The position numbers and the translations under genes were made by a program. Source: Candidatus Collierbacteria bacterium (GTDB lineage: Bacteria > Patescibacteriota > Microgenomatia > UBA1400 > JACPES01). From it: DNA of 64,000 nucleotides. The notes beneath the pieces are model-generated. The model was not told the origin of the DNA. It saw nothing but the letters and a program-made list of their open reading frames with translations, and ran no database searches. Shown here piece after piece: positions 271-38,683 of the stretch (position 1 is its first letter; every line of letters starts with the position of its first letter). The stretch is taken from NCBI GenBank assembly GCA_016219325.1, contig JACRNH010000014.1:132-64131 (forward strand), in the 5' to 3' direction.

Positions 271-1902
271 ATGGAAAATTGGAATTGGACAAAACTTCTT
301 TTAATTTTTAGTTTTCTAATCTTTTTAGGATCGCTGCTTTTACGCCAAGAAACGGCAATAACGCAGGATTTGGGAAGACATTTAAGATTGGGAGAAATGA
401 TTACCGCCGATGGAGAAGCCGGAAAGTGCGCTCTTTATTCAAATTGCCTGACGTACACTTATCCTGATTATCCGTTTATAAATCATCACTGGGGATCGGA
501 AGTAATTTTCTATCTTGTCCATAAATGGTCAGGCTTTTCCGGAATTATTGTTTTTAAAACAATTATTCTGGGATTGACGTTTATAGTTACACTTCTCCAT
601 TCGCTAGAACTCAATAAAGGCCCGGCCTTTTTAAAAAGGCCGGGCCTTTTATGGCTAGCAATTGCTGTTAGTCTTGTTTTTTTCTCCGTCCAAATGATGG
701 CGGACAGGCTAACTACCCGCCCGGAAATTTTTGGATATTTCTTGTTTTCTATCTTATTCTGGATGCTGAATTCATCGTTTCCAAAACGTCTTTTATCATT
801 GTTTCTTGTTTTCTGCTCATTGCTCATTATTCTGTGGGTGAATTTACACATTTCGTTTGTGTTTGGATTGATACTTATCTGGATTTGGGCAGGGAGCCAA
901 TTATTAGCGTCATTGCGAGGGAGCGACAGCGACCGCGGCAATCTCGGAGATCGCCACGCCCCGCCGCGTCGAACGCGGCTGGGGCTCGCGATGACGGCAA
1001 CGGCGGCGGCGTCTACTATGGCAACTATTTTCAATCCTTCCGGACTCCGCGGAACGCTGATGCCGCTATCAATACTCAAAGACTACGGCTACACCATTGT
1101 GGAAAATATGAATCCTTTTTTCTTGACAGCATTTAAACCACAACCAGAATACTGGATATACATTATATTGTTGATAACGACTATTTTCTTATTTCTTTTT
1201 TCCTCCGCCAAAAAAAATCCTTTTCACCTGCTAACCTTTTTAACTTTTAGCCTTTTCCCTCTTATTGCCGTCCGCCACCTGCCATTTTTTGCGCTTGTAA
1301 TTTCACCTATCTTGGCCCCGTTACTCTTTAGCGTCTTAAAAGGCCCGGCCTTGCTTAGCAAGGCCGGGCCTTATGATGCCCATATTCCGATACTAACTAT
1401 TGGCTTCTTATTATTGACAGCATTTACCAATCCCATTCCTCTTGCCTACGCCAAACTCCCGCCGATAAATCTATCCACAGATTCCCGCCACGATCAGGCC
1501 ATCGAGTTTGTTAAACAAAATAATTTTCAGGGACCGATGTGGAATAACTACGACATCGGCAGTTTCCTGGAATGGGCGATTCCGGAACACAAGACTTTCG
1601 TTGACGGAAGACCTGAAGCATTCCCTGTTGGGTTTTTCAAAAAGACGTATATTCCGATGCAGGAATCGCAGAAAAAGTGGGACGAGGTAACCGCGGCAAA
1701 CGATATCCAGTGGGTGTTTGCGGCTCTGACAGACGCCACTCCGTGGTTTACCAAATGGTGGCAGATGATCCAAAATCATCAGGGTTGGAAGATTGTATAC
1801 ATTGATAATTACAGCACAATTCTGATCCGGACCAACGGCAAAAACAATTTAATTGAACCACAGGGAAAAGCTCGATTATTAAAAACCCTCAATTCGGATT
1901 GA
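271..1902 (+). CDS. Polytopic integral membrane protein (hypothetical). Carries two in-frame 33-34-nt palindromic inserts and a GC-rich insert.
   Basis: 543-aa ORF with many hydrophobic helices. Hairpin inserts at 616-649 and 1340-1372 and a GC-rich patch at about 897-1020 all lie in frame. Confidence 0.6.
   Translation: MENWNWTKLLLIFSFLIFLGSLLLRQETAITQDLGRHLRLGEMITADGEAGKCALYSNCLTYTYPDYPFINHHWGSEVIFYLVHKWSGFSGIIVFKTIILGLTFIVTLLHSLELNKGPAFLKRPGLLWLAIAVSLVFFSVQMMADRLTTRPEIFGYFLFSILFWMLNSSFPKRLLSLFLVFCSLLIILWVNLHISFVFGLILIWIWAGSQLLASLRGSDSDRGNLGDRHAPPRRTRLGLAMTATAAASTMATIFNPSGLRGTLMPLSILKDYGYTIVENMNPFFLTAFKPQPEYWIYIILLITTIFLFLFSSAKKNPFHLLTFLTFSLFPLIAVRHLPFFALVISPILAPLLFSVLKGPALLSKAGPYDAHIPILTIGFLLLTAFTNPIPLAYAKLPPINLSTDSRHDQAIEFVKQNNFQGPMWNNYDIGSFLEWAIPEHKTFVDGRPEAFPVGFFKKTYIPMQESQKKWDEVTAANDIQWVFAALTDATPWFTKWWQMIQNHQGWKIVYIDNYSTILIRTNGKNNLIEPQGKARLLKTLNSD
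616..649. repeat. Intragenic palindromic element, copy 1 (AAAGGCCCGGCCTTT-ttaa-AAAGGCCGGGCCTTT)
   Basis: Perfect 15-bp inverted repeat with a 4-nt spacer. Translated in-frame as KGPAFLKRPGLL. Confidence 0.8.
1340..1372. repeat. Intragenic palindromic element, copy 2 (AAGGCCCGGCCTTGC-tta-GCAAGGCCGGGCCTT)
   Basis: Perfect 15-bp stem with a 3-nt loop. 33 nt, in-frame (KGPALLSKAGP). Confidence 0.8.
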
Positions 1903-1937
1903 CAACCGGTCGGGTTTCAGTTAACCTAGGTGATATT

Positions 1938-2651
1938 ATGCCGGAATCGTCCAACAATAAAAATATTTTAATCGCCCTCCTGGCTGTTGCTGCTTTTTTA
2001 ATCGGATCGCTGTTTACCGAAGTCCGTTATTTAAAAAAATCCGGAAACCAAAATTCTCAAGTTGCCAACACCATCCCGGTTGCTGCTGAAGACAACATTT
2101 CTCCCCAACCGCTTTCTGACTCCGATCATGTTTTAGGAGACCGGAATTCCAGACTGCTATTTATAGAATATTCTGACCTCGAATGCCCGTTTTGCAAACA
2201 ATTCCATCCGACTACCAAACAAATACTAGAGGAATATAAAAATAACCTAGCTCTTGTTTATAGACATTTTCCGCTAGATATTCATCCCAAGGCCAGGAAA
2301 GAAGCCGAGGCGACCGAATGCGCCCGGGATTTGGGCAGTCCTTCTGATTTTTGGAAATTTGTCGATAAAATTTTTGAAGTTACACCGTCCAACAACGGCT
2401 TAAATCCTGACGAACTACCGAAACTTGCTGTCCAAATCGGCCTGAATGAAAATAAATTTAAAGATTGTTTGGCAAGCGGAAAATTCACCCAAAAAATCGC
2501 TGATGATTACGATCAGGGAATTAAAGCCGGAGTTGGCGTCACCCCCAGCAGTGTAATTGTCGATACTAAAACCGGCAAAAGCAAAACCATAACCGGGGCT
2601 GTCCGCCCGGAACAAATTAAGTCCGTTATTGACGCCATGCTGAAGGAATAA
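1938..2651 (+). CDS. DsbA-family thiol:disulfide oxidoreductase (thioredoxin fold), membrane-anchored
   Basis: CPFC active-site motif (SDLECPFCKQFHP) and an N-terminal hydrophobic anchor. AGGTGA lies 8 nt upstream of ATG 1938. The ORF track starts at TTG 1899, overlapping the previous stop. Confidence 0.75.
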   Translation: MPESSNNKNILIALLAVAAFLIGSLFTEVRYLKKSGNQNSQVANTIPVAAEDNISPQPLSDSDHVLGDRNSRLLFIEYSDLECPFCKQFHPTTKQILEEYKNNLALVYRHFPLDIHPKARKEAEATECARDLGSPSDFWKFVDKIFEVTPSNNGLNPDELPKLAVQIGLNENKFKDCLASGKFTQKIADDYDQGIKAGVGVTPSSVIVDTKTGKSKTITGAVRPEQIKSVIDAMLKE

Positions 2652-3305
2652 ATGAATAGACTTCTGAAGACGATCGGTTTTATTCTTCTGCTTGTTGTAA
2701 TCTCCGCCGGCGGAATATTTATCCTGACCCGGAAACCGAAAGCGGTTGAAGGGATAGAAACATTTCCCAGTCAGGGCCGCAATCACGTCCCTGCCGGAAC
2801 TATCGGAGAATATAACAGCAATCCGCCTACTTCGGGACCGCACTACACCCAATGGGAAAAACCGGGAATATACAATAAGGTTCTTCCGGACGGAAACTTA
2901 ATTCACTCGTTGGAACACGGATATGTGATAATTTCGTACGATTGTACGAAATTATCAAACTCAAAACTCAAAACTCAAAGTTCAAAATTTTGGAAGGTTT
3001 TTGCGCATGAAACGGAAGAGATCCATGAAGAACCTCCGGCCACAGATAGCGCTGATGTCAAACCAGATAATATTTCCGGATGGAAAGATAGTCCTGATTG
3101 CCAAAAATTGGTTGATCAGATAAAACAAGTTACCAAGAAAACCGGCATGGACAGGCTGATCGTAGTTCCCAGGCCAAATCTTGATGTCCCAATAGCTATG
3201 ACGTCCTGGACAAAATTGTTGAAACTGAACGACGTCAACGAAGACAAAATTATTAATTTCGTTAAAGAATTCCGGAACAAAGGTCCTGAAAAAACCATGG
3301 AATGA
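2652..3305 (+). CDS. DUF3105 family protein, membrane-anchored
   Basis: PPTSGPH and HSLEHGYVIISY motifs with an N-terminal TM. Contains a heptamer tandem repeat at 2957-2988. Confidence 0.6.
   Translation: MNRLLKTIGFILLLVVISAGGIFILTRKPKAVEGIETFPSQGRNHVPAGTIGEYNSNPPTSGPHYTQWEKPGIYNKVLPDGNLIHSLEHGYVIISYDCTKLSNSKLKTQSSKFWKVFAHETEEIHEEPPATDSADVKPDNISGWKDSPDCQKLVDQIKQVTKKTGMDRLIVVPRPNLDVPIAMTSWTKLLKLNDVNEDKIINFVKEFRNKGPEKTME
2957..2988 (+). repeat. Heptanucleotide tandem repeat (AAACTCA x3 plus a variant) inside a CDS
   Basis: caaactcaaaactcaaaactcaaagttcaaaa, encoding SNSKLKTQSSKF. Confidence 0.75.
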
Positions 3306-3327
3306 CAGGCTTTTTTTCAGGGCGAAT

Positions 3328-3621
3328 TTATCCCAATTCTTTTTCCAGTTTGGAAATCTTAAGCATTCTAAGGATATTCCCGATTAAGACGAAAAGGGAG
3401 AATCCAACTCCGATTGCCAACAACACCAAAGGCAAGTTGGCCGGAATATTCGGCAGGAATTGGTAAAGGACCGGATAAAACATCAGGGCCATAAACACTA
3501 CAAGGATTACCAAAATTGCTTCCAAAGAATAAATAATCTTCTCTAGCCTCAACTGCTGAATCCTAAATTCAAGATTTGGTTTAACCTTAACCGCCGGAGT
3601 TGTAACTGTTTTTCTTGGCAC
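3328..3621 (-). CDS. Small membrane protein (hypothetical), last gene of the metal operon
   Basis: 97 aa with two hydrophobic helices, lying downstream of the ATPase on the same strand. Confidence 0.45.
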   Translation of the reverse strand: MPRKTVTTPAVKVKPNLEFRIQQLRLEKIIYSLEAILVILVVFMALMFYPVLYQFLPNIPANLPLVLLAIGVGFSLFVLIGNILRMLKISKLEKELG

Positions 3622-3671
3622 GAAAATTATTATATATCAAAAAAATCTGCATGCAATAGGAAAAATTAATT

Positions 3672-5771
3672 TTAGACCTCAAGCTTGACTTTTTTTAAGG
3701 CCATGGCGTTAATTACCACAATCACTGAAGACAGACTCATCAAAAACGCCCCTATTCCCGGTGTAAGTTGAAAGCCAAGCGGGATAAATAAGCCTGCAGC
3801 GGCCGGAATCGCCAAAACGTTATAGCCGGTAGCCCACAGTAAGTTTTCTATCATTTTCCGGTAGACTTTTCTGGAAAGGATAACCAGCCTGGCCACGTCC
3901 TCCGGATTGCTGCGGGTTAAAACTACGTCTCCTGATTCAACCGCGACGTCAGTCCCGGCCCCAATCGCCACTCCGGCATTGGCCTGTTTCAAGGCCGGGG
4001 CGTCATTAACGCCGTCTCCCACCATAATGACTATCTCGCCTTTATCCTGAAGGCTCTTAACATATTTATATTTATCGGCCGGTAAGACTTCAGCAAAAAC
4101 TGTATCCATCTCCAGCTCTTTACCCACGTCTTCTGCCACTTGGTGGTTATCTCCGGTAACCATGGCTGCTTTGACCCCTAATCGGTGCAAGCTTTTTATG
4201 GCAGATATTGATTCGGGCTTGATTTGATCGGACAAAGAGATTGTCCCCAAAATTTGTTTCCCGTCGGCAACAAATACTGTCGTTCCCCCACCGTCTTCTC
4301 CATTTACCGAAAGCCCTTTTTCTTTCATTAATCTGAAATTGCCAATCGTATATTTAATTTTCCCAACAGTGCCCTCTATTCCTTTCCCAGCCAAATTTTT
4401 AAAATTGACAACGGACTGAAGAGATACGCCTTTTTGTTTGGCATATTTGACGATTGACAGGCCGATAACGTGAGAGGAATGGACTTCTAGGGAGGCTGCT
4501 ATTTCAATTAAGGCCTGGCCTTGCAAAGCAAGGCCAGGCCTTTTAAGACTTACGATTTTAGTCACCCCGAACTCCCCCTTCGTCAATGTTCCGGTCTTGT
4601 CAAAAATCACATAAGTAGCTTTTTTAATTACCTCTAATTTTCCTAAATCTTTCAGAAAAACGCCGTTTTTAACGGCTAAAGTTGTGGCAATAGTTGAGAC
4701 AGTTGGGATAGCCAAGCCTAAAGCATGCGGACAGGCAATTACCAAAACCGTAATCGCCAAAGTCATGGCAAAAACAAACGGCTGTCCGGCTACCGCCGAC
4801 CAAAAGAACAAAGAAAATAATCCGACCGTCAAGGCGGTAAGGGTCAAAATTCCGGCGGCCTTGTCGGCGATCTTTTGGGCGGTAGGCTTGGTTTTTTGGG
4901 CTTGAGCGATAAGGTTTTTAATCTGGCCTATAGTTGAATTTTCTCCGACTTTATCCAACTTGACTTCCACCGAACCATCAAGACAAATAGCTCCGGCTAT
5001 CGCTCTATCGCCGGTTTTTTTGGATACCGGCCGTGATTCGCCGCTGATATGAGATTCATTAAAGTTGACCGCGCCCTTAATGATTATTCCGTCGGCCGGG
5101 ACTTTCTCCCCAGGCTTGACCAATACTACGTCCCCCTCTTTCAACTCTTCAATATCTATATCTTCTGTTAATTCTGAATTCTGAATTCTGAATTCTGAAT
5201 TAATTATGCGGTGGGCCTGTTTCGGCAACAACTTTGCCACTTCTTTCAGAGCATCGCCGGCTGCAGTAGAAGATTTAGCTTCTAAGAAATGGCCGAATAA
5301 CAACACCCAAATCAGAGTAGATATTTCCAGATAAAATTCGGTTTTAATCGCCGGAATAAATGTTGAAGCGGCGGAAAATAAGTACCCTGAACCGACGGCC
5401 AATGATACTAAAGTCATCATCCCGTATTTCTTAGCCATCCATTCATGGCGGGCATGCTGGAAGAAAATCAGGCTGAAGTAGAAAATGACGGTGGCAGCTG
5501 CAAATTCTAAATAGTTCCGACCGGCGAAATCCGGCATTCCCAGAAACCTAATACCCAGTTTGCTGGTTATCAACAACGGAACCAATAACAAAGTGACGAT
5601 TAAAAATCGTCTCAAAAAATCTCCGGCGGCTTGCGGCCCGGCCATCATGGCGGCGTGATCATGAGATTCATTAGCCTCATGCTGCGGAACTAAATCCATT
5701 CCCCCGCACTTGGGACATTTTCCGGGATGATCCTGTTTAATCTCGGGGTGCATGGGACATGTATAAATCAT
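3672..5771 (-). CDS. copB: Heavy-metal translocating P1B-type ATPase with CPH motif (CopB-like) and an N-terminal CPMHPE...CPKCGM metal-binding domain
   Basis: DKTGTLT, GDGVNDAPAL and CPH (VIACPHALGLAIP) motifs are present. The N-terminus reads TCPMHPEI...GKCPKCGM. Eight TM-like segments. Confidence 0.9.
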   Translation of the reverse strand: MIYTCPMHPEIKQDHPGKCPKCGGMDLVPQHEANESHDHAAMMAGPQAAGDFLRRFLIVTLLLVPLLITSKLGIRFLGMPDFAGRNYLEFAAATVIFYFSLIFFQHARHEWMAKKYGMMTLVSLAVGSGYLFSAASTFIPAIKTEFYLEISTLIWVLLFGHFLEAKSSTAAGDALKEVAKLLPKQAHRIINSEFRIQNSELTEDIDIEELKEGDVVLVKPGEKVPADGIIIKGAVNFNESHISGESRPVSKKTGDRAIAGAICLDGSVEVKLDKVGENSTIGQIKNLIAQAQKTKPTAQKIADKAAGILTLTALTVGLFSLFFWSAVAGQPFVFAMTLAITVLVIACPHALGLAIPTVSTIATTLAVKNGVFLKDLGKLEVIKKATYVIFDKTGTLTKGEFGVTKIVSLKRPGLALQGQALIEIAASLEVHSSHVIGLSIVKYAKQKGVSLQSVVNFKNLAGKGIEGTVGKIKYTIGNFRLMKEKGLSVNGEDGGGTTVFVADGKQILGTISLSDQIKPESISAIKSLHRLGVKAAMVTGDNHQVAEDVGKELEMDTVFAEVLPADKYKYVKSLQDKGEIVIMVGDGVNDAPALKQANAGVAIGAGTDVAVESGDVVLTRSNPEDVARLVILSRKVYRKMIENLLWATGYNVLAIPAAAGLFIPLGFQLTPGIGAFLMSLSSVIVVINAMALKKVKLEV
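4510..4542. repeat. Intragenic palindromic element, copy 3 (AAGGCCTGGCCTTGC-aaa-GCAAGGCCAGGCCTT) within copB
   Basis: Perfect 15-bp stem with a 3-nt loop. 33 nt, in frame (LKRPGLALQGQAL on the minus strand). Confidence 0.8.
5171..5203 (-). repeat. Heptanucleotide tandem repeat (GAATTCT x about 4.4) in-frame within copB
   Basis: attctgaattctgaattctgaattctgaatt on the plus strand; the gene strand encodes INSEFRIQNSE. Confidence 0.85.
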
Positions 5772-9819: not shown

Positions 9820-10563
9820 TTGTCAACTTGTCTGTATAATCAATCTGTGAATTTATTCCTAATCCTTTCCGCTTTGCTGGCGGGATTCTTAATGTTTTTT
9901 GCCCCTTGCACCCTGCCGACTGTTCCGGGATTTTTAGGCTTCATCAGCGGGTCTTCAAAAAAGAATTCCTTAAAAAACGCCCTTTTCTATGTATTTGGGT
10001 TCATGTTGATATTTATTCTGCTTGGAGGGATCTTCGGCATTGGCGGTGCGGCATTGAGACAATATCGCTTAATTCTCCAAAAAATCGGCGGGCTGTTCAT
10101 CATCTTTTTTGGACTGATGACTACCGGATTTCTTCGTCATCCTATTTTTCAATGGTCCTTTAATATTCCTTTATCTAAACATCTAAAACCGGGAAAACCA
10201 GTTAGTTCTTTTCTCTTCGGAGCTGCTTACGGACTGGGCTGGACTCCCTGTATCGGTCCGGTTCTGGGCAGTATTTTGCTTTTGGCATCATCTTTTGAAA
10301 ACGCGACTCAAGGAATCATATTATTAATAATTTTCTCCCTCGGACTAGCAATTCCCTATCTGCTTGTAGCGTCAGGATTTTCTTCAATTGTGGATAATGC
10401 TAAAAAATTCCGCCCTGTTTTCAGGGGGATTGAAATAATCGGCGGAATTCTAATGATAATCATCGGCATATTATTGGTTACCAATAAGTTCGGCCTGATG
10501 GTATCAACAACTTTTAGACTGTTCGATTTTATTAATTACGATAGCTTATTAAAATATCTCTAA
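9820..10563 (+). CDS. ccdA: Cytochrome c-type biogenesis / thiol-disulfide transporter CcdA (DsbD family)
   Basis: FFAPCTLP and GWTPCIGPVLG motifs with six TM segments. The true start may be GTG 9867, because a TATAAT-like box at 9835-9840 lies inside the TTG-start ORF. Confidence 0.7.
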   Translation: MSTCLYNQSVNLFLILSALLAGFLMFFAPCTLPTVPGFLGFISGSSKKNSLKNALFYVFGFMLIFILLGGIFGIGGAALRQYRLILQKIGGLFIIFFGLMTTGFLRHPIFQWSFNIPLSKHLKPGKPVSSFLFGAAYGLGWTPCIGPVLGSILLLASSFENATQGIILLIIFSLGLAIPYLLVASGFSSIVDNAKKFRPVFRGIEIIGGILMIIIGILLVTNKFGLMVSTTFRLFDFINYDSLLKYL

Positions 10564-10564
10564 T

Positions 10565-12160
10565 ATGTTTCCATCCTCAAAAATCATCGCCGTATTGTCT
10601 TTTTCTATCTTTTTATCAGGAGTAATAAATATTACTTCAGCCATCTGGTCGCATGCTCCCGATAGGATTTCTTTATTAATCCAATATATCCCGCTGATTG
10701 TCAGCCATACCACCAGAAGCTTGACAATTGTTCTGGGAATTTTTCTGATATTCCTGTCACAGGGATTATTAAAGCGAAAATATCGCGCCTGGCTGTTTAG
10801 CATCGGACTGTTATCCATATCTTTACTCTTGCACGCGCTCAATGGATTAAACTGGGAAGAGGCTTTGATTCTGATTTTTCCTTTGGGAATCTTGATTTTT
10901 TACAAAGATTTATTTGTCGTCGAAAGTAACCGTGCGACAGCCAAGTCCAGAATAAAATATCTTCTGTTAGTATTGACGTTCCTGTCAACCTATTTATTTA
11001 TTGGCTTTCTGGTATTCAGAGACGAACTGATCTATCTCCCATCAGCTCAAGGGCTCGTTGAAAGTCTGGTTAATTTATCCACCGGCCTTGGAAACAGCTA
11101 CATATTCCCTATAACTGATCCTGCTGATTGGTTTTTAAATTCAATCAAATTTGTTGAATTATTTGCGGTTATATTCTCCGTCAGTTCAATATTTGCTCCG
11201 CTGACAGATAAATTACAACCCTCTGAAGATGAACAATTTTTAGCCCAGAATTTAGTCCGGCTTTATTCAGTAAATTCTGTTGCTTATTTCAGCTTATCCG
11301 GCGATAAAAAATATTTTTTCCATAACAATTGTTTTGCGGCATATAAAACCGCCGGCGACACGGCGGTAGTCCTGGGCGACATTATCGGTCCTGATTCTGA
11401 GATCCAGGAATCCTTAAATGCATTTATAAAATATGTTGCCATAAAAGGCTTAACTCCCGTTTTTTTTAATATTAATGAGTCAATGGCGCAGTTAATCCAA
11501 AATTACGGATGGAAAATTATGCCAATCGGATTGGAAGCAGTTCTAGATACTTCATTATTTGACATATCTCAGCCTGAACTAAAAAGCATCCGTTACAGCG
11601 TGAATAAAATAGAAAAATTGGACGCGGCGTATAAATGGTTTTCGGCCAAAGATCTTCCTTGGGAAGCCTTAAAAGACATTGAAAATTTATATCATGAATG
11701 GATTGGGAAAAAACACGCGCCAAAATTAAAGTTTTCCCAAAATTATTATCCCTTACCGGTTGATGAAAACGTAAAAATCCTTGCTGTCTATTCTCCGCAA
11801 GGGGTTCTGTGGGCGGCGTTAAGCTTTCTGCCTTACCAAAACGGAACAAGTTACTCTCTGGATTTAATGATCAGAAGCAAAAATACCCCATACGGAGCCA
11901 TAGCAGCCGGAATAGCTCAGTCAATTGACTTTATGAAAGAGCGCGGCGTCAAGCGGATAAATTTGGGACTGGCACCTTTAGCATCAATCGGAATGCCCAA
12001 GTTTTTGCTGCACAGATTGAATACTATATATAAATACCGTTCTTTATATGAGTTCAAAAAACAATTTAATCCTATTTGGAATAAAAAATATATCGCCCTG
12101 CCAAAATACACTGGTTTGCCAAAAGCCACATTGGCCATATTTCGGGTCCATTCCGCCTGA
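10565..12160 (+). CDS. MprF-like protein: N-terminal membrane domain plus a C-terminal DUF2156 aminoacyl-phosphatidylglycerol synthase-like domain
   Basis: Hydrophobic N-terminal half. The C-terminal half reads YFSLSGDKKYFF...AAYKTAGDTAVVLGDIIGP, DUF2156-like. Confidence 0.5.
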   Translation: MFPSSKIIAVLSFSIFLSGVINITSAIWSHAPDRISLLIQYIPLIVSHTTRSLTIVLGIFLIFLSQGLLKRKYRAWLFSIGLLSISLLLHALNGLNWEEALILIFPLGILIFYKDLFVVESNRATAKSRIKYLLLVLTFLSTYLFIGFLVFRDELIYLPSAQGLVESLVNLSTGLGNSYIFPITDPADWFLNSIKFVELFAVIFSVSSIFAPLTDKLQPSEDEQFLAQNLVRLYSVNSVAYFSLSGDKKYFFHNNCFAAYKTAGDTAVVLGDIIGPDSEIQESLNAFIKYVAIKGLTPVFFNINESMAQLIQNYGWKIMPIGLEAVLDTSLFDISQPELKSIRYSVNKIEKLDAAYKWFSAKDLPWEALKDIENLYHEWIGKKHAPKLKFSQNYYPLPVDENVKILAVYSPQGVLWAALSFLPYQNGTSYSLDLMIRSKNTPYGAIAAGIAQSIDFMKERGVKRINLGLAPLASIGMPKFLLHRLNTIYKYRSLYEFKKQFNPIWNKKYIALPKYTGLPKATLAIFRVHSA

Positions 12161-13845: not shown

Positions 13846-14511
13846 ATGAAATCATTAAATATTCTAAAAGGATTAGCTTTCGCGAGTATCATGGGAGTGA
13901 GCACCATTCTTCCCTTGATAACCCCGCAGGTAGTTTTGGCTCGTGATTCCAAATTGGCCATGTCCGGCGATTTGAAAAAACACATTGTCAAAACTATTAT
14001 CGGTAAAAGGTCAATTGTCCGCGGGGGGATAGTAACCGCTAAAAACGATTCCTCATTAACAGTGTCAAAAGACGACAAGTCCTATGATGTAGAAATTGAT
14101 TCCGATACTAAGCTAATGAGGCGATTCGGAGGAGAAAGTTCTTTAAGCGAACTCAATGTTAACGACAAAGTTAACGTTTCCGGCACTTGGGATAGCGACG
14201 ATAAAACCAAGGTTAAGGCTAAACTTATCCGGAATCTTTCCGTCATGAAGAGAAACGCTGTTTTGTCAGGAACCGTTCAGGAAGTTTCCGACAACGGATT
14301 CAAACTGGAAACAGCTAAGAGAGGAACCGAAGAGGTGTCCGTTTCTTCAGACACAAACTTTATCAACCAAAAAGGTGAAGGTATTTCTAAGTCTGATGTC
14401 CAAACCGGCCATAAAATAAGAGTGAAGGGGGTTTGGAATAAAGAAAACCATAAGGAAGATGAAGTCAGCCAAGTTAAAGATTTTAGCTTACCGGAAAAAT
14501 CCGGCAAATAA
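13846..14511 (+). CDS. Secreted repeat protein (hypothetical, DUF5666-like)
   Basis: AAAGGGGGTGA RBS, a signal peptide, and repeated VNVSGTWD / IRVKGVWN segments. Confidence 0.5.
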   Translation: MKSLNILKGLAFASIMGVSTILPLITPQVVLARDSKLAMSGDLKKHIVKTIIGKRSIVRGGIVTAKNDSSLTVSKDDKSYDVEIDSDTKLMRRFGGESSLSELNVNDKVNVSGTWDSDDKTKVKAKLIRNLSVMKRNAVLSGTVQEVSDNGFKLETAKRGTEEVSVSSDTNFINQKGEGISKSDVQTGHKIRVKGVWNKENHKEDEVSQVKDFSLPEKSGK

Positions 14512-14537: not shown

Positions 14538-14570
14538 CAACAAGGCCCTTTGGCAGAAGGGCCTTGGTTG
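14538..14570. terminator. Bidirectional intrinsic terminator hairpin between convergent genes
   Basis: caaggccctt-tggcag-aagggccttg, a 10-bp stem, sits between the + gene ending at 14511 and the - gene ending at 14578. Confidence 0.5.
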
Positions 14571-14577
14571 ATTAAGT

Positions 14578-16011
14578 TTATTCCGCAAACGTTCCGAATG
14601 AATTCTCAATTAAAGGACCGTAAACTGACCACTTGGAGGCCGGGGCCCGGCCGATCATCATAAATGCCCCCTGACCGTCAGGTCTAAACAATAATGACCA
14701 AAACTCTGTAACATTAATTTTATCTTTAGGCAAATAATGTTCAATTTCCATGGAAATCCGGCGGAACCCTTTCCACGAACTCTCTTTTGGCTCTTTGATA
14801 AACTTCAACTGTTGATAATCCTCCGATTTCGACAAATAATCTTTTATCGCAGTCGTATATACCTCTTCATTCTCTCCCAACGGATTCCATGAGTTTTTAT
14901 CTACAAAAAAGAAGGCCTCTTTCGGCTTCATAAATCCGACTTCTTCCTTATCTTTGGCGTCTTCAACTTTCCAGTCTTTCGGGTAGCGCATTAACCAACC
15001 GTAATTGCTAACGTATGGTTTGTCCGTCAACAATGACTGATCAAACGGCTGTCCTCTCTGGCCGGAACGGGTAACTTTGGCGCTAAACTGCAATTTTCCT
15101 CCAGCAGCCGCCAGAATCATCAGCCCAATTATCCCCGCCAGTAAAACAGTCCATATTTTCTTCTTTTTTCCGGCCGGCTTTTTGACAGGTTTGCCAACCT
15201 CTTTATTCTTAATTAAAAATGAGGCTACTGCAGCAATTAGCCCTGTCCCAAAAACCCAAATACCGATCTTCTGGCCTATATCTATCGCCCTTTCTAATAA
15301 AATTTTAATTATCGGAAACAAAAACGGGGGAATAAAATTAAATGAAGGCAATACCGCTGAAACCTGTCCAGGGGCTGATTTAACGGCCAGAGTCAATACT
15401 GCCCCAGACACAATCAACATAACACCGCTCCCCCGCAATTTTCCTTTCAGTGTTTTTCCCAACCAAAAATGCAGAACCAGCAACAATCCTGATAATGTCA
15501 ATGCCGCTCCCCAAACTATTGGCAAAAAAGAAATTATATTTTTTATCTGTAAAAAAGTTTTCTTTAATTCTGCTCCAGATTCCGGCTTCCCCGACATTTG
15601 GCCTAAAAGATTTGGCAAATCAGTTTTTTCAGATAATTGAGACAACGGCGGTTTTTGGAATAGCTGTTTCGGCAGACCAGATTTAGAAACCGGAGCATAA
15701 AAAAACAAATCTGTATCTTTCCCAACAAAAAAACCTTCCAGTCTGGTTAAATTGGTTTCAACAACGTCTTGGAAAAAATCCGGCGTTAAACCGTTAATCA
15801 TTTGAAGGGCCATAGTATTGCCCCCAGCCGACTTTTTAGACTCCAGACTGATTTGATTATAAATTTCAGTATTCTTGAGGGTCTCAATCCAAAAATCAGC
15901 CTTTAACAATCTAAACCTGATAATGGTTAACAGGGAAAACAATAAAAACAGAACAAAAAACAAATCTCCCGTTACCCACCTGAAAAAAAATCTAAAGAAA
16001 TTTTTCACCAA
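14578..16011 (-). CDS. Large membrane protein (hypothetical)
   Basis: 477 aa with multiple TM segments and a KKPAGKKKK linker. Confidence 0.55.
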   Translation of the reverse strand: MVKNFFRFFFRWVTGDLFFVLFLLFSLLTIIRFRLLKADFWIETLKNTEIYNQISLESKKSAGGNTMALQMINGLTPDFFQDVVETNLTRLEGFFVGKDTDLFFYAPVSKSGLPKQLFQKPPLSQLSEKTDLPNLLGQMSGKPESGAELKKTFLQIKNIISFLPIVWGAALTLSGLLLVLHFWLGKTLKGKLRGSGVMLIVSGAVLTLAVKSAPGQVSAVLPSFNFIPPFLFPIIKILLERAIDIGQKIGIWVFGTGLIAAVASFLIKNKEVGKPVKKPAGKKKKIWTVLLAGIIGLMILAAAGGKLQFSAKVTRSGQRGQPFDQSLLTDKPYVSNYGWLMRYPKDWKVEDAKDKEEVGFMKPKEAFFFVDKNSWNPLGENEEVYTTAIKDYLSKSEDYQQLKFIKEPKESSWKGFRRISMEIEHYLPKDKINVTEFWSLLFRPDGQGAFMMIGRAPASKWSVYGPLIENSFGTFAE

Positions 16012-31432: not shown

Positions 31433-32248
31433 GTGAGAATTATGAAAAATATGAATCTACCAGCCTATCCTAAAAGAAAGATGAAGGGCAATATTGGGGA
31501 AGCTTTGGCTCAATATGTTTTATCAAAGTTTTGTCTTGTCCATAAAATCGACGGAAGCAACGATATCGGTAACGATTTAATATGCGAGCTTATCAGAGAT
31601 GAATCGCCTACTAATTTGCTTTTTTATGTCCAAGTAAAATACTCAAACAAGAACCCGCAGATAAGAAAAGAAACGCTCGAATACTGGAAAGATTCTCCAG
31701 TTCCCGTATATCTGTTTTGGATTAAAGATAAAAACCCCACCCCTATTTACTCTTCTGATAATTTTTCCGAACTTGAAAAATATTATAAAAGATATACTCC
31801 CATATTGCACAATCCACAGAAGCACTCTAGCGAAAAATTCAAATTATACGAAGAGCTCCAATTCAAAAGAGATCTTATCATTGACTATTCAAGAACACAA
31901 TTTTTCAAGGGTTATGCACCTATTATCGAGCCAAGAGATTTTCTGAACATGAACGAAAAGATGAAGCTAGAATTCAGACAATATGTCTTTTATATTAAAG
32001 ATGTCATTCCAGAATACTCAAAACAAATACTTTCACAAAGCTGGCTTCATATTTTCACCTCTGCTGTTTTGTTGTTCCTAAGGGGCGATATTCAAAGTCT
32101 TCAGCAAGCGAAGGGATCTATCGCAATGGCTAAGAAATACCTAAAATATGCTGATGAGAAAAAAGTGTTTATATTTGAAGAAACTTTAAATGTTTATGAA
32201 AGCAAAATAAACGAGGCAATTCAAGTATTGAACGCAAATAAAAAGTAG
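31433..32248 (+). CDS. Hypothetical protein, DUF4365-like (possible PD-(D/E)xK nuclease fold) N-terminus
   Basis: GNIGEALAQYVL...DGSNDIGNDLICEL...YVQVKYS pattern. Confidence 0.4.
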   Translation: MRIMKNMNLPAYPKRKMKGNIGEALAQYVLSKFCLVHKIDGSNDIGNDLICELIRDESPTNLLFYVQVKYSNKNPQIRKETLEYWKDSPVPVYLFWIKDKNPTPIYSSDNFSELEKYYKRYTPILHNPQKHSSEKFKLYEELQFKRDLIIDYSRTQFFKGYAPIIEPRDFLNMNEKMKLEFRQYVFYIKDVIPEYSKQILSQSWLHIFTSAVLLFLRGDIQSLQQAKGSIAMAKKYLKYADEKKVFIFEETLNVYESKINEAIQVLNANKK

Positions 32249-32273
32249 TTCATTAGTTTTTGTTACAAATCCA

Positions 32274-32489
32274 TCATCTAAAGAATTCAGGAATTTCAAC
32301 CTTTAATGCCTTTGCAATCTTGTATAGCACGTAAACACTAGGAGAATAGCGGGCATTCTCCAAATGCCCCACATACGTCCTGTAAAGCCCTGCACGGTCT
32401 GCTAGCTCTTCTTGGGAGACATTCCTCTTCTTCCTCCACTTTTTGATTCTTTTACCGACTTCAACTGTAAGCTCTCTTTTGGATAACAT
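32274..32489 (-). CDS. XRE-family helix-turn-helix transcriptional regulator
   Basis: VSQEELADRAGLYRTYVGHLENARYSPSVYVLYKIAKAL. Confidence 0.7.
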   Translation of the reverse strand: MLSKRELTVEVGKRIKKWRKKRNVSQEELADRAGLYRTYVGHLENARYSPSVYVLYKIAKALKVEIPEFFR

Positions 32490-32564
32490 CCTATCTAAAT
32501 TCTCTCTGATTATCAGAAAACGACAACGCGGTAAACATAGACTTTATAAGGAAAATCGTTTATA

Positions 32565-33419
32565 ATGAGGCTAATCAAGTTATGGATAAAATCGATGAAA
32601 AACAAACTTCCTCAGGTAAAATTTATGCCTGCCTTCCTTGTTTTTTTAGTAATCGTTACTCTTATCTGTGCAAACGAAATAATCAAATTCAATCAATTCA
32701 ATAATTATCTTAAACAAGCCGTGGTTTTATCCGCTTATGGAAAATCCCAAGAAGCCCAAGAGAGCTTACGGTTAGCAAAAGAGAGGATAAATACCACTAT
32801 TCTTGTTAAGATCATCAAAAATTGGGAAATTGACCGGACAGAAAAGCAAATCAATGAAATTGGACAATTAGTAGACGAAAAAGTGAGAAGGGTGATTAAT
32901 GAGGAAATGACAACTTCCTCGTCAACATCTACTCCAACTCCCGCGCCCATACAACAAAAACTTTCAACTTTAATTCCGGATCCAACGCGTCCACCAGAAG
33001 ATAAATCCTCTTACGGATATGATTCCTATTACCCGATAATACTGTCTTTTTCCGATAATAAGGGCGGGCTAATCAAATACTCGCAATACAATCAGTATCC
33101 ATATGGCTCGCAAAATACAGGCATCACTCTAAAGACTGGCGATTCCATAACTTGGAAGGCTGAAGCAAGCGACCCAAAAGGCAGACAAATTTCATACAAT
33201 CTAAACTCAAATTCACAACGGTTTAACGATATTTATGGACGAGGAGAATATAAAACTACGAGTCAGTTTGACTATGCGATTACAGAAGAAGATATAAAAA
33301 GTGCAGGAGATACCTTGCGGATGGTTTTATACATTAGGTCTGAAAAGGATAACTACAGAACGGGTGGCGGCGGAAATGATGATTCAACTTATCTTGACTA
33401 TAAACTCCAACCTAATTAA
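32565..33419 (+). CDS. Secreted or membrane-anchored protein with a Ser/Thr/Pro linker (hypothetical)
   Basis: N-terminal TM, an SSSTSTPTPAP linker, and a Tyr/Gly-rich C-terminus. Confidence 0.45.
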   Translation: MRLIKLWIKSMKNKLPQVKFMPAFLVFLVIVTLICANEIIKFNQFNNYLKQAVVLSAYGKSQEAQESLRLAKERINTTILVKIIKNWEIDRTEKQINEIGQLVDEKVRRVINEEMTTSSSTSTPTPAPIQQKLSTLIPDPTRPPEDKSSYGYDSYYPIILSFSDNKGGLIKYSQYNQYPYGSQNTGITLKTGDSITWKAEASDPKGRQISYNLNSNSQRFNDIYGRGEYKTTSQFDYAITEEDIKSAGDTLRMVLYIRSEKDNYRTGGGGNDDSTYLDYKLQPN

Positions 33420-33424
33420 AAAAT

Positions 33425-33853
33425 ATGGAAAACAAAACAAATTGGTCTTTAATTAAGCAAATACCTTTGTGGGGATGGGGGTTAATTCTGATTCTGTCTA
33501 TTGGTTTTTTATCATCTCTTTCAATCCCCAACAGAGAAACAAAAAACAATAGTAACTCCAATGTAGTCAAGGAGGTCAACAAGCAAACTCAGGCCAAAGT
33601 TAACTTCACTGGCACTCAATTTGTGATAACCAATGCTAATGATTTTGACTGGGAAGAAGTCGAAATCATCATTAATGAAAAATATCGGTACAAAACTGGT
33701 CTAATGAAATCTGGCTCAACCTACGAAATCGGAGCGAGACAATTTACCGATGGCAAAAATGTTCGATTTAATCCTTTCGAGATAAAGCCAGCAGAGATAA
33801 GGATTTGGGTTAAAGAGCCATGGAGTGATGATTGGTACGGAGAACTGAAGTAA
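33425..33853 (+). CDS. Membrane-anchored protein (hypothetical)
   Basis: 142 aa with a single N-terminal TM segment. Confidence 0.4.
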   Translation: MENKTNWSLIKQIPLWGWGLILILSIGFLSSLSIPNRETKNNSNSNVVKEVNKQTQAKVNFTGTQFVITNANDFDWEEVEIIINEKYRYKTGLMKSGSTYEIGARQFTDGKNVRFNPFEIKPAEIRIWVKEPWSDDWYGELK

Positions 33854-33860
33854 GTTGCAA

Positions 33861-36800
33861 CTATTTTTTCTTGTTCAATGCTTCCAACCGAATACCAATC
33901 TGTTTAGTCACATTTTCTTTAACTTTGGCAAAGACTGGTTTAGATAAGATTTGAGGCAATCTCCTCTCTAGTTTTATCAATTCTTCTTTTGTTGCTGATT
34001 TAATGGCAATAGACCATAAAGCACCGAAGTCGGTAGCCGTTTCTAATATTGGCTGAACTGGTGTTTTTGCTGCAATCGCTCTCGAAACTAAATCTGCAAA
34101 AATATTGCTGATATAGTCTATCCAGTAAATTTTATCTTCAGTTATAAGACCAGGTCTCCACATCTTTGAGATGAACTGGAGAAACACGGCACTAAAACTC
34201 CTCAGGTCGGAACCAGGCAGAAAGATTTGATTTATCAAATGATAGCTTCTTGCACGAAACTTAAAATCATCCTCTGCGACTATTACATAGAGGTCATCAC
34301 CACTGAAACTTACAAAGGTGTAAAAACATTCCGCGAGTTTACCAATTGCTTTTGAATACATTGTTGGGTCTAACAATCCCTGCTCTCGAATTTTTTGGAT
34401 AATTAACCAAGTATTCAATGGGGTTATAGCCTCTGATTTAAGAAGCCTATATAACCTAAAATCATCTGTGACCATGATCGTCCCCCTCTTTTTAGCGAGG
34501 TTCATCGAATCAATGAGCCAGCTTTCAAAAAGGTCATTTGTCTTTTGCCCTTTCAATTTACCTTTTGGAACGTGCTTTATGATTTTTATAGCAGTGCTAC
34601 TTCTAAGAAAGTTCCACAACCTCCTAAGACTTTCATTTTCTTCTTGCAAAAGCTCATCTTGAATTTTTTGAAAAAGCGAAAAGGAAATCTCCATCTGTGG
34701 GCATATTTTCTCGGTATCATTAAGAAGATTTAACTTTGACAGTGTGAGTAAGGATAGGTAATCAAATACAAAGACCTTATCTTTTGAATAGTTATCTTCT
34801 AGTTCTTTTCTAAACTCAACCGATGGCAGGGTGTACTCAAACGGCATTTCTGGATCTCTGCCAGACCATACGGTTATATACGGCTTCTTAAAAGTATTCT
34901 GCAGGAAGTAGGAGGGAATAGGCTGTTGTACGTATATTTGCTTAATTCTATTCGTCCACTCTCTCCTATCTTGAATCATTTTGATAATTTTTCCCTTATC
35001 CTTTCTATAGTCTATCTTTTGGATAGATTTTAGTTCTGGAAATTTTTCATCGAAAGCTAGCGCTCCCTCTAACAATCTGTCTCCACCTTCCTCGGAGGCA
35101 TACCTTAACATAACTGCCCCATAATGAGATAAAACCATTTGTACAGCAGGACCTTTTGGCAGTTGCTCAGCAAACCCCCTTGCTTTTGAGGCGGCTAATA
35201 TTGCCTTGTTTTTATCTCCTAGTAATACTTCGACAAGGCTTACGTCCAACCAGTACTGAAAATCATGTTTGTTTGTGGCTTCCTCCTCAATTTTTTGAAA
35301 TAGACCCCGAGCTATTTCTGGACAGCCATTATAAAGAAATGCTCGAGCGATTCTTATGGTTTCTTTATAGGAAATTTTGTCAAAATCAGGTAAAGATTGT
35401 AGTAGTGATAACGAAACTTCAAAGTCCCTCTTTCTAAATGCCTCAACTGCTTTCAGGAATTTGTCTCCTAGAGTGGATTCATTGGGTATATCACTAATCG
35501 GTAAAGCCATTCTCTTAAGCTTTTGCTCTCCCAACCATGTCCTAACTACATTTTGAAAGTAAAAAACTTCGTCATAGAACAGTGTTAGCTCCTTCTCTCT
35601 AGCCACAGACATCGCTTCATCAAAGTCTGCCTTCGCTTGGTTTAAATGCGTCTTTTTTTGAAACTCTGGGGCAATGTCTGAATAGCCAACGGAGTACGGT
35701 ACGGCATCTTTCTCAAGAGCTATAGCAAGCATGACGCGTCCTCTTAACAATAGACTTTCAACATCGTGCTTAAGCTTACAAGAAATATCTGCAAACTTAA
35801 AAGCATTATCTAACTGCCCAGCTTCTAGGTAAAAATGCCCTACAGTAAGCGATAAGACGTCATCGGAAGTAAACAGCTGCGAATATTGAACGCCTTTTTC
35901 TATGAAACCAATTACACCAGACACTCCTTCTTTAACTCTGACTAGTTTCAAATACACTTGTAATATCGCGGGGTCCTGATCCCTTCTTGTTTCTACCATC
36001 AGTGGTTGAAGTATCTGTTGTGCTTTATCTAGTTCACTTTTAGCTTCTTGTTCTTGTAGCTTTTGGCTTTTGTTTATGTGAACCGTAGCCAAGTTTTTGA
36101 CAGCAATTATGAAATCTGTATTTGCCTTAACTGCTTTCCTGAAGTACTCAATAGCTTCATCTAATTCATCTTCAATGCTGCAAGCAACTCCTATGTTGTT
36201 GTAGACTTTCGCTAATTCATTCCCAAAGTCAGGTTTATCTTCAATCTTCCCAAGAATTTTGAACAATAGTGTTTTGGCTTCTCCAATACTGCCCCTATCG
36301 AGCAAGTCTTTTGCTATTTTAATCTCTTCGTCTATAACTGATCTCTCTATGCCTTTGCCACTTAGGGCAATTGAGGTGGGTTTTTGTTCGTTTTGAGGAG
36401 TGTAAATCGACAACACATCTTTTTTCTGTTCTAACTGCTTTGCTTTCTTTACATCCTTATCTGTTGGTATTCTTTTTTGTCTTCTCGGTGTCGTTTTCAC
36501 AGAGAAAATCTTTTGTTCCTCTTTTCCTTCAAGACCCTTCTTTATCACTTGCTCTTTCCAAACCCCTAATATTCTTTTTCTCTCTGTAAGAGAAAGTTTG
36601 ATAGTCTCCCCATAAATATCTTTATAAATCTTAGGAAAACAGCCTATGAGGTCTTTAATCTGTTGTCTTACGGTCCAAAGGACAATTCTAAACGGATAAC
36701 TATGCTTCTGGAGGGAACCATCTACTACTTCTCTAAATTCGTTGTCAACAAAGCCGAATGGAGCAAATATACACCAACAATCACTGGGGGTACTGGAAGA

Positions 36801-37085
36801 GTAAAACTGACTAAGTTTGGTGTGTGTTTCGGTTTTTGGGATTAGTGTTTCCTTGCGACTCTCACAACCGTGACTTTTTGACTCTATTGCCCAGGCAAAC
36901 TCAATCTCTTTATCGTCAATTTTTGCAGACCACTTAGATATGTGATCCTTGCCAAATTGCAATCCACCACTTTGTGGATTTAATTCTAAAGGTAGGAATT
37001 TCCATTCTTTCAGAAGACAAGTTAAAAATTCGTGCAGTATTTTTTCATACTTGTCGCCCTTAGGCTTAGAGCCCTGTATTTTCAT
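33861..37085 (-). CDS. Large TPR-repeat protein (1074 aa), hypothetical
   Basis: TPR-like helical repeats in the central region, e.g. VYNNIGVACSIEDELDEAIEYFRKAVKANTDF. The N-terminal ~200 aa and the C-terminal third are unassigned. Confidence 0.65.
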   Translation of the reverse strand: MKIQGSKPKGDKYEKILHEFLTCLLKEWKFLPLELNPQSGGLQFGKDHISKWSAKIDDKEIEFAWAIESKSHGCESRKETLIPKTETHTKLSQFYSSSTPSDCWCIFAPFGFVDNEFREVVDGSLQKHSYPFRIVLWTVRQQIKDLIGCFPKIYKDIYGETIKLSLTERKRILGVWKEQVIKKGLEGKEEQKIFSVKTTPRRQKRIPTDKDVKKAKQLEQKKDVLSIYTPQNEQKPTSIALSGKGIERSVIDEEIKIAKDLLDRGSIGEAKTLLFKILGKIEDKPDFGNELAKVYNNIGVACSIEDELDEAIEYFRKAVKANTDFIIAVKNLATVHINKSQKLQEQEAKSELDKAQQILQPLMVETRRDQDPAILQVYLKLVRVKEGVSGVIGFIEKGVQYSQLFTSDDVLSLTVGHFYLEAGQLDNAFKFADISCKLKHDVESLLLRGRVMLAIALEKDAVPYSVGYSDIAPEFQKKTHLNQAKADFDEAMSVAREKELTLFYDEVFYFQNVVRTWLGEQKLKRMALPISDIPNESTLGDKFLKAVEAFRKRDFEVSLSLLQSLPDFDKISYKETIRIARAFLYNGCPEIARGLFQKIEEEATNKHDFQYWLDVSLVEVLLGDKNKAILAASKARGFAEQLPKGPAVQMVLSHYGAVMLRYASEEGGDRLLEGALAFDEKFPELKSIQKIDYRKDKGKIIKMIQDRREWTNRIKQIYVQQPIPSYFLQNTFKKPYITVWSGRDPEMPFEYTLPSVEFRKELEDNYSKDKVFVFDYLSLLTLSKLNLLNDTEKICPQMEISFSLFQKIQDELLQEENESLRRLWNFLRSSTAIKIIKHVPKGKLKGQKTNDLFESWLIDSMNLAKKRGTIMVTDDFRLYRLLKSEAITPLNTWLIIQKIREQGLLDPTMYSKAIGKLAECFYTFVSFSGDDLYVIVAEDDFKFRARSYHLINQIFLPGSDLRSFSAVFLQFISKMWRPGLITEDKIYWIDYISNIFADLVSRAIAAKTPVQPILETATDFGALWSIAIKSATKEELIKLERRLPQILSKPVFAKVKENVTKQIGIRLEALNKKK

Positions 37086-37107
37086 AGTTATATTGTATCG
37101 AAGCAGC

Positions 37108-37326
37108 TCATCCGTTTATGAGTTTTTGAATATCTTCCAAACGGTAGCGTCTGTCTCCTGTAACATTGGGATTACTCCTTTTAGGGTGTGCCCTCGAACC
37201 AATCCTTATAGCCACCAATCGACTTTCTTTATCCCACCTTCTCAGCGTGGCGGGGTGGACGCTCAAAAGTTTGGCGGCTTCTTTAATTTTTAACAATCTT
37301 GAAATTTTTGTTTTTGTTTCGTCCAT
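37108..37326 (-). CDS. Excisionase/AlpA-like (HTH_17) DNA-binding protein
   Basis: LLKIKEAAKLLSVHPATLRRW...RYRLEDI. Confidence 0.6.
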   Translation of the reverse strand: MDETKTKISRLLKIKEAAKLLSVHPATLRRWDKESRLVAIRIGSRAHPKRSNPNVTGDRRYRLEDIQKLING

Positions 37327-37404
37327 AGTCGACTCGTTTCTTTAGCTTAATTATGTTAAATTATACATTAGCACTGGTTAATTATAAAGACAATCAAGAT
37401 AAAT

Positions 37405-38157
37405 ATGAGTTTTGAACCCATAAGCATAAAGATTGATGACTTAAAACTATTTGCAGACGTAGCTTTTGCAATTGATAGTCCATTTTTCATCAACGAAGCT
37501 GTCAAACTCAGAAAACAATACGGTATCACTGAACCCCTTGGGGGGAGTTCTTATCAAACTTGGGCTGTCGAACACTTAAGCGAGAAGGGTATTAAAATTC
37601 TCTTTAAACAAGTATCTGAAATTCGAGCCCGCATGATACTGACCGCTAATTATCAAGAAGTTTTCGAAAAAGCTGTTTTTGGTTGTGATATTGAAAATGG
37701 AGATTACGAAACAACTATGCTTATCAACTTTCAAAAACTACCCAACTATTTGAGCTATAAGCTACCAATATCTGAAATGTATGCAATTCTTCTTTCACCC
37801 CAAACAAGATATGACGATGTTAAAAACACATTTGCCAGATATGAAAAGCTCATGGCTTCGTTTAGAGAAAAAATAGATACCGTTAACTTGTTTGATAATT
37901 ATAATCAAAGTAAAAGCAACATCAAAACTGTTAGGAAATGGTACTGGATTAGGTACGGGGATGTAGTTTCGAATCGGTCGGAAAAACCAAAAACCTACCC
38001 TGAAATATTAAAGGAGTGGGGGCGTAAATGTCCAAAATGTGAAGAGGGTCATGCGACTGCTGGAGAAAATGCAAGATGCCCCTATTGTCGTATTACAGAC
38101 CAAAATATCCTAGAAAAACTTGTTCCCGAGTATAGAAAAAGGTTAAGACAGCCCTGA
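37405..38157 (+). CDS. Hypothetical protein with a C-terminal Cys4 zinc ribbon
   Basis: CPKCEEGH...CPYCRI motif. Confidence 0.45.
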   Translation: MSFEPISIKIDDLKLFADVAFAIDSPFFINEAVKLRKQYGITEPLGGSSYQTWAVEHLSEKGIKILFKQVSEIRARMILTANYQEVFEKAVFGCDIENGDYETTMLINFQKLPNYLSYKLPISEMYAILLSPQTRYDDVKNTFARYEKLMASFREKIDTVNLFDNYNQSKSNIKTVRKWYWIRYGDVVSNRSEKPKTYPEILKEWGRKCPKCEEGHATAGENARCPYCRITDQNILEKLVPEYRKRLRQP

Positions 38158-38655: not shown

Positions 38656-38683
38656 CTTACTTTGAAAATTTATCAAAATAAAT

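Follow-up and report, generated by a model that had tools for sequence, protein, structure and literature searches.

The copB gene of a Collierbacteria genome, which encodes a copper ATPase, holds within its reading frame a perfect 33-nt hairpin, and the question raised by this locus is how such a structure came to lie in a conserved coding sequence and what has allowed it to stay there. Collierbacteria are members of the candidate phyla radiation (CPR), and the DNA analysed, here called the window, is a stretch of 64,000 nt from contig JACRNH010000014.1 (positions 132 to 64,131 of the forward strand) of assembly GCA_016219325.1. The decisive result is that the 13-nt module from which the hairpin is built, AAGGCCNGGCCTT, brackets a transposase gene in three CPR genomes, the encoded enzymes resembling the tyrosine transposases associated with repetitive extragenic palindromes (REPs) and known as RAYTs. 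In the explanation that we consider probable, the copB hairpin is a non-autonomous doublet of REP type, akin to a REPIN (REP doublet forming a hairpin), which was mobilised in trans by a RAYT-like transposase of the CPR and has survived in a permissive loop of the protein.

The element and its host gene are arranged as follows.

4510 to 4542, no strand assigned: REPIN-like doublet, two inverted 13-nt modules and a 7-nt spacer, forming a perfect 15+3+15 hairpin.
4510 to 4522, no strand assigned: left module AAGGCCTGGCCTT, a 13-nt palindrome about its own centre base.
4523 to 4529, no strand assigned: spacer GCAAAGC, whose GC/GC ends lengthen the stem.
4530 to 4542, no strand assigned: right module AAGGCCAGGCCTT, whose centre base is the complement of the one in the left module.
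3672 to 5771, minus strand: P1B-type copper ATPase gene with HMBD, E1-E2 and HAD domains, hosting the doublet at 4510-4542.

An earlier reading of the letters of this DNA (the original prediction) had described a 33-nt perfect hairpin lying in frame within the copB ATPase gene, and both statements stand. The palindrome is AAGGCCTGGCCTTGC-AAA-GCAAGGCCAGGCCTT: its two arms, of 15 nt each, show 100% complementarity, and the loop between them has 3 nt (AAA, or TTT on the gene strand). Its first base on that strand is the third position of codon K410 and its last is the second position of L421; the reading is KRPGLALQGQAL, in the local context VSLKRPGLALQGQALIE. The element is made up of two inverted copies of AAGGCCNGGCCTT set 7 nt apart, and because each arm itself holds a 13-nt palindrome, the element is an inverted doublet of a module and not a simple hairpin. 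When folded as single-stranded DNA it is predicted to reach -19.6 kcal/mol (z -7.1).

Two sister doublets occur in the window, in a second gene.

616 to 649, no strand assigned: sister doublet AAAGGCCCGGCCTTTTTAAAAAGGCCGGGCCTTT, read as NKGPAFLKRPGL, in open reading frame (ORF) 271-1902.
1340 to 1372, no strand assigned: sister doublet AAGGCCCGGCCTTGC-TTA-GCAAGGCCGGGCCTT, read as LKGPALLSKAGPY, in ORF 271-1902.
271 to 1902, plus strand: second host gene, encoding a polytopic membrane protein of 543 aa without a Pfam match, on the opposite strand to copB.

The element is thus found, as had been proposed, in an unrelated gene on the other strand. The copy at 1340-1372 had been said to differ from that in copB in the central base alone; this holds for the arms, which are alike save for the centre base of each (C/G, as also at 616-649, against T/A in copB), but the loop differs too (TTA against AAA). 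A search of the window with the 15-mer at up to two mismatches returned only these three doublets, in 12 overlapping matches where 0.39 were expected and where none of 100 shuffles reached 12, and it found no lone modules. Likewise, three inverted AAGG-N5-CCTT doublets are present in the window, compared with none in 200 Markov randomisations. Homologs of ORF 271-1902 show variable occupation at four loops, as copB does, and homologs about 33% identical to it are found without the insertions.

The wider family was enumerated with the pattern AAGGCCNGGCCTT-N4-10-AAGGCCNGGCCTT in 185,579 species genomes, which yielded 54 doublet loci, overwhelmingly from Patescibacteria (the CPR), with 16 copies in the Collierbacteria lineage JACPES01 and five in Daviesbacteria GW2011_GWA2_42_7. 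The pattern had no match in viral contigs, so that carriage by phage is unsupported. About three-quarters of the CPR copies lie inside long open frames, and all three frames are used. Identical 33-mers are present at different JACPES01 loci with different flanks, and one identical 36-mer is shared between copB of one genome and the homolog of ORF 271-1902 in another. The two module centres are complementary in 50 of 57 copies fetched by the pattern (P ~3e-23), and the spacers are symmetric beyond chance; at orthologous sites the centres are found in compensated form, as C..G, T..A or A..T. Among loci fetched by protein homology, 20 of the 21 doublets are inverted. The hairpin is the constrained unit of this repeat family. 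Freedom from stop codons was considered as a further rule and rejected: no stop codon interrupts any of the six frames of the copB copy, but the same is true of only 28 among 75 copies in the family.

The link to a transposase came from a weak tblastn match (E 0.015) in locus L038, which led to a CPR gene of the Y1/HUH type with the motifs LMPNHFHLMM and YIHLNPV; the queries, IS200 TnpA and E. coli RayT, gave no clear match. A Y1_Tnp gene is present in four of the 54 loci that had been fetched by DNA pattern alone, where some 0.4-0.6 would be expected (P 0.0007-0.004), and in three genomes the AAGGCCNGGCCTT module stands on both sides of such a gene.

L019 (Daviesbacteria): module 34 nt upstream of the transposase start codon and 69 nt past the stop codon.
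L039 (Microgenomates): module 34 nt upstream of the transposase start codon and 17 nt past the stop codon.
L075: module about 30 nt upstream of the transposase start codon and about 75 nt past the stop codon.

In the Daviesbacteria genome with the bracketed transposase, doublets also lie inside argS and pheT. The enzymes pass the Pfam model Y1_Tnp (PF01797) at 38-49 bits against a cut-off of 23, and their HUH (NHFHLL) and YIH.NP motifs are present. Related transposases are bracketed in the same manner by other repeats of the AAGG-N5-CCTT frame: L071 and L073 have AAGGCGTCCCCTT in this position, and L028 has AAGGCACTTCCTT, which also occurs there as an inverted doublet. In the two genomes compared, L071 (a metagenome contig; gene at 10001-10690) and L073 (an NCBI Daviesbacteria assembly; 10001-10693), the RAYT-like gene is syntenic between rplS and dnaE, and this shared slot fits vertical inheritance of a single-copy gene. 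At least 7,998 homologs of the enzyme are present in public data, and those bearing names come from Microgenomates lineages. The original prediction had argued for mobility or templated spread of the hairpin, a proposal now supported by the variable orthologs, by identical or near-identical doublets in unrelated genes and genomes, and by the transposase that the module flanks.

The place of the element in the copB product was examined next to that of its orthologs. The ORF contains a CPH motif, by which, on the established classification of P1B ATPases, it is of the CopB (P1B-3) type. The hairpin had been placed within the nucleotide-binding region; alignment to Archaeoglobus CopA (VPLNG-----DERELLRLAAIAE) puts it instead in the loop between the first strand of the N domain and helix a1, and not in the nucleotide pocket. 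In the AlphaFold model of CopB, whose mean predicted local distance difference test score (pLDDT) is 69.6, residues 411-415 form one of nine segments with pLDDT below 50, between a strand at 403-408 and a helix at 418-429. The site is best read, on this model, as a tolerant surface loop, the first of the N domain.

Alignment of CopB homologs finds the stretch not to be conserved: in 76 of 104 CPR orthologs the segment from DKTGTLT to LE.HSSH has a fixed length of 25 aa and lacks the element sequence. The same loop measures 30 aa in the window gene, and two Collierbacteria alleles, termed 'empty', have 20 aa. With 31 aa, P0002 and P0007 exceed the empty allele by 33 nt, the same number as the palindrome contains. 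The Collierbacteria orthologs compared at the DNA level (70-81% nucleotide identity to the window gene) carry the following in this loop.

P0002: arms as in the window, loop AAA, reverse-complemented relative to the window gene (TTT on its gene strand).
P0007: arms as in the window, loop GAA.
P0011: AAGGCCTGGCCCCGCCAG|CTGGCGGGGCCAGGCCTT, a perfect 36-nt palindrome of other sequence.
P0003 and P0014: AAGGTC(T/C)GACCTT...AAGGTC(A/G)GACCTT, referred to as the TC type.
P0005: an unrelated palindrome.
P0008: a heptamer array, (CCATCAA)n.
P0013: a heptamer array, (GTCAAGA)n.
P0004 and P0009: the 20-aa 'empty' allele.

By this comparison the copB element is inserted extra DNA, which would have replaced part of the ancestral loop. 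No target-site duplication is visible at the copB loop, the gain in length being that of the palindrome. Nor was a conserved target motif recognised, the flanks being merely A/T-rich, with strings such as TTGAT, TCAGA and AATAGAT that recur inconsistently. The arms are better conserved than the gene around them: all 30 arm nucleotides are identical across the window gene, P0002 and P0007, at a gene identity of 0.74-0.79 and a third-position identity of 0.48-0.56, and the chance of 30 identical positions at gene identity is 0.786^30, or ~7e-4. In a neighbour-joining tree the window gene, P0002, P0003, P0004 and P0009 form one clade with 100% bootstrap support, element carriers are paraphyletic, and the TC type recurs in the distant P0014. 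A separate gain in each carrier is not demanded by this tree; since empty and TC-type alleles nest within the carrier clade, one old insertion followed by loss or replacement suffices.

Two features of other copB loci may be recorded here. In L059 (141-162), L060 (3091-3121), L061 (3102-3125) and L057 (1151-1181), perfect or near-perfect palindromes such as CATGGGACTCATGAGTCCCATG encode a His-rich N-terminal stretch (HGTHESH), and window copB is without them. Downstream of TC-core doublets in L058 (4209-4255), L062 (2057-2103) and L069 (1255-1299) stands CAAGGTC(A/G)GACCTTAATAGAT, read as QG(Q/R)TLID, in three contexts (two copB genes and one other), which hints at a longer copied unit or at a target preference.

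The favoured explanation brings these results together in the following way. A divergent RAYT-like Y1/HUH tyrosine transposase of CPR Microgenomates would have the AAGGCCNGGCCTT module as its cognate repeat. In single-stranded DNA, two inverted modules about 7 nt apart would fold into one long hairpin, and the transposase, by analogy with REP/RAYT and IS200/IS605 enzymes, would cut and rejoin this hairpin at the foot of the stem, where AAGG and CCTT form a clamp. The excised hairpin would then be pasted elsewhere without target duplication. As CPR genomes have little intergenic space, insertions would land in genes, and a copy would survive only if it left the frame intact and lay in a surface loop that tolerates it. 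The copB copy would owe its survival to a net length change that keeps the frame and to its position in such a loop. The sequences themselves establish the repeat family, its nature as an insertion, the symmetry of the hairpin with its compensated changes, a conservation higher than that of the gene, and the bracketed transposase gene in relatives; that this enzyme catalyses the reaction, that single-stranded DNA is the substrate, and that the element is or once was active in this Collierbacteria genome are inferred.

Several observations weigh against this explanation. No Y1 transposase is encoded among the ~56 ORFs of the window, a tblastn search of ~285 kb of Collierbacteria DNA gave none, and no homolog named as Collierbacteria appears among the 120 RAYT matches listed, few of which bear names. 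The best NCBIfam match of the enzymes, NF047646 (REP_Tyr_transpos), lies below its cut-off of 80, at 30-42 bits for full-length proteins and 58 for the L038 fragment. The insertion junction in copB is not fixable to the base, because the flanks of the loop have strongly diverged and because the canonical loop exceeds the empty allele by 5 aa. Finally, the loops that hold doublets hold heptamer arrays and unrelated palindromes in other orthologs, for which a RAYT mechanism alone gives no reason.

Of the alternatives, the one that survives best is that the palindrome has been kept perfect and spread by replication template switching alone, through hairpin-templated correction and ectopic copying with no dedicated transposase, so that the copB copy would be old and passively maintained. 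Such events could account for the loop having been reverse-complemented between the window and P0002 (TTT against AAA) with arms and flanks unchanged, for the symmetric divergence in P0011, and for elements that are mosaics of module and interior, and they would need no transposase in the window. Template switching leaves unexplained, however, that one and the same 13-mer flanks a Y1 transposase gene at fixed distances in each of three genomes and that related enzymes have AAGG-N5-CCTT repeats of their own, and it does not account for identical 33-36-mers shared by unrelated genes in different genomes; we regard it as improbable.

A selected regulatory structure in copB was also considered, in which an mRNA hairpin would pause translation at the boundary of the P and N domains, stabilise the message or terminate transcription. 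The fold of the mRNA around the site is indeed very stable, with a predicted minimum free energy of -37.4 kcal/mol (z -3.9), conservation of the arms greatly exceeds that of the gene at large, and the site coincides with a domain boundary. Yet close orthologs are without the hairpin and have heptamer arrays or unrelated palindromes at the same loop instead, and many genes with no relation to copB contain the sequence, read in any of the three frames. Termination was rejected for all three doublets, none of which a scan for terminators flagged on either strand (their tails read TTTAAGAC and AATTGAAA), and in an Rfam scan of the window a tRNA was the sole match, the doublets belonging to no known RNA family. 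Such a selected regulatory structure is very unlikely.

Just as unlikely is the suggestion that the doublet offers two recognition sites to a dimeric DNA-binding protein (a nucleoid or segregation factor, for instance), each site being a 13-bp dyad about 20 bp from the other. It is favoured by the dyad form of each module with its free centre base, by the presence of tens of copies per genome, and by the spacing of modules, which clusters at 19-23 bp from centre to centre. Independent dyads have no need of complementary centres or symmetric spacers, however, whereas 50 of 57 copies have complementary centres; point mutation, and not the insertion of 30-36 nt into conserved genes, is the usual origin of binding sites; and single modules are lacking in the window. 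That KRPGLALQGQAL is a selected peptide insertion adapting CopB function, with an incidental DNA palindrome, can hardly be credited: the insert does preserve the frame and occupy a surface loop, but copies are read in three frames into unrelated peptides (RPGL.., KGQAL.. and KARP..), the DNA is conserved more than the synonymous sites of the gene, and the loops of orthologs are filled with unrelated sequences.

If the copB hairpin is accepted as a REPIN-like element, it may be compared with known systems. REPs and REPINs are textbook extragenic repeats, and their persistence and their tie to single-copy RAYT genes are debated. The published hallmarks are a single-copy RAYT gene flanked by its own REPs and an inverted REP doublet as the mobile unit (PMC3116915, PMC3337134, PMC5581495), with doublets of ~70-110 nt and a location that is extragenic by definition as well as by census, only 14 of 1,067 16-mers overlapping genes in SBW25 (PMC3116915). 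The likeness to the REPIN/RAYT systems of Pseudomonas and Escherichia is close in that an inverted doublet of a short palindromic module forms one hairpin, the doublet and not the singlet is conserved, the module flanks a Y1/HUH transposase gene, and copies are dispersed and better conserved than their surroundings. A RAYT-like gene flanked by the same repeat is found in the related genomes L019, L039 and L075; dispersed palindromic copies number three in the window, 16 in JACPES01 and 54 loci overall; and the inverted doublet is conserved as a unit (50 of 57 centres, 20 of 21 inverted, 30 of 30 arm positions). The extragenic location is where the systems part, all three window copies being inside ORFs. 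The copB element is moreover only 33 nt long, its host belongs to the CPR, and the enzymes fall under the NCBI cut-off for RAYTs. E. coli REPs are reportedly of a GTAG-plus-hairpin form (as attributed to Messing and Ton-Hoang, 2012), and the CPR modules differ in having an AAGG-N5-CCTT frame.

In-frame residence has a precedent in the Rickettsia palindromic elements (RPEs), which lie at fold-compatible places in unrelated conserved protein genes, are ~150 bp long, encode a conserved peptide in one frame and have no known transposase (PMC10969869). The copB element also lies in frame inside conserved genes of a small-genome bacterium, but it is 33 nt long, uses all three frames and has a candidate transposase. 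Membership of the RPEs (100-150 bp, conserved peptide) was accordingly rejected, since the peptides differ by frame and only the in-frame residence is shared. Transposition in the IS200/IS605 family proceeds by single-strand 'peel and paste', with a Y1/HUH enzyme that recognises a DNA hairpin. The present case is similar in the match of its enzymes to Y1_Tnp, in its hairpin element and in the lack of a visible target-site duplication; it differs in that the copB element is gene-free and would need mobilisation in trans. A miniature inverted-repeat transposable element was ruled out: no target duplication is visible, the gain in length is the palindrome, no flanks are conserved, and the window contains no insertion sequence. 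The small dispersed repeats of cyanobacteria, a subject of Elhai and colleagues in 2008, are said to co-occur with short tandemly repeated repetitive arrays of heptamers, sometimes inside genes at shared sites. Tiny palindromic repeats beside heptamer tandem arrays are common to both cases, the phylum and the sequences are not, and we know of no transposase link reported for the cyanobacterial repeats. Within a limited literature search no description of in-frame palindromes or of REP/RAYT in the CPR was found. The kind of element is known; what is new is its intragenic, ultra-short and CPR-borne form.

A REPIN-type element residing inside the frames of conserved, probably essential CPR genes, and conserved above the surrounding codons, provides a natural setting in which to study how REPIN spread is limited when intergenic DNA is nearly nil, and each RAYT clade with its AAGG-N5-CCTT core is a testable enzyme-substrate pair. 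It also offers an explanation for odd low-complexity peptides scattered through CPR protein annotations, and a caution for those who annotate CPR proteins or predict their structures: a short insertion in a loop, rich in Pro, Gly and Ala, can be selfish DNA and not an adaptation. A broader suggestion, which we put forward tentatively and think doubtful as it stands, is that CPR Microgenomates hold a large undescribed radiation of RAYT-REPIN systems whose repeats have shifted from intergenic space into coding sequence, and which, with heptamer arrays, repeatedly occupy, replace and vacate the same surface loops in conserved proteins, CopB, ArgRS, PheRS-beta and DnaG among them. Were this so, a selfish hairpin element would be a routine generator of loop diversity in ultra-small genomes. 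It might, in addition, insert by preference into repeats already present, or be kept because it serves the host as RNA or DNA.

The heptamer arrays form a second class of repeat in the window. That copB carries one, as originally noted, is correct: AATTCTG x4.6 lies at 5170-5201, in a low-confidence loop (residues 193-199). Two more are inside dnaG (55750-57546), GAATTCT x4.6 at 56906-56937 and TATTCAG x4.7 at 56964-56996; further arrays in coding sequence occupy 2957-2987 and 52173-52207, among them AAACTCA x4.4 in the DUF3105 gene. The copB and dnaG arrays are one repeat in shifted register (AATTCTG against GAATTCT), and orthologs have other heptamers at the same loops.

The three doublets are packed into 4 kb (616-4542) of the window, a clustering that may reflect either local hopping or the tolerance of membrane-protein loops; in the genomes examined, each homolog of ORF 271-1902 has between one and three doublets. 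ORF 271-1902 also contains, at 908-990, a GC-rich element of about 80 nt with inverted ends GTCATTGCGAG...CTCGCGATGAC, read as SLRGSDSDRGNLGDRHAPPRRTRLGLAMTA; it occupies the same loop in orthologs P0128 and P0130 and another loop in P0129, and others hold AAGGCCNGGCCTT doublets at the 908-990 loop. Elsewhere in the window, the low-GC stretch 32000-48000 (37-38%) encodes two large serine recombinases (39261-40850 and 45824-47467) and a protein of TPR-GreAB-C-PIN type (33861-37085), and is probably an integrated element or defence island. A GC-rich hairpin, AACAAGGCCCTTTGGCAGAAGGGCCTTGGT, at 14539-14568 lies between the convergent ORFs 13846-14511 (plus strand) and 14578-16011 (minus strand), and is probably an ordinary bidirectional terminator with AAGG/CCTT-like ends.

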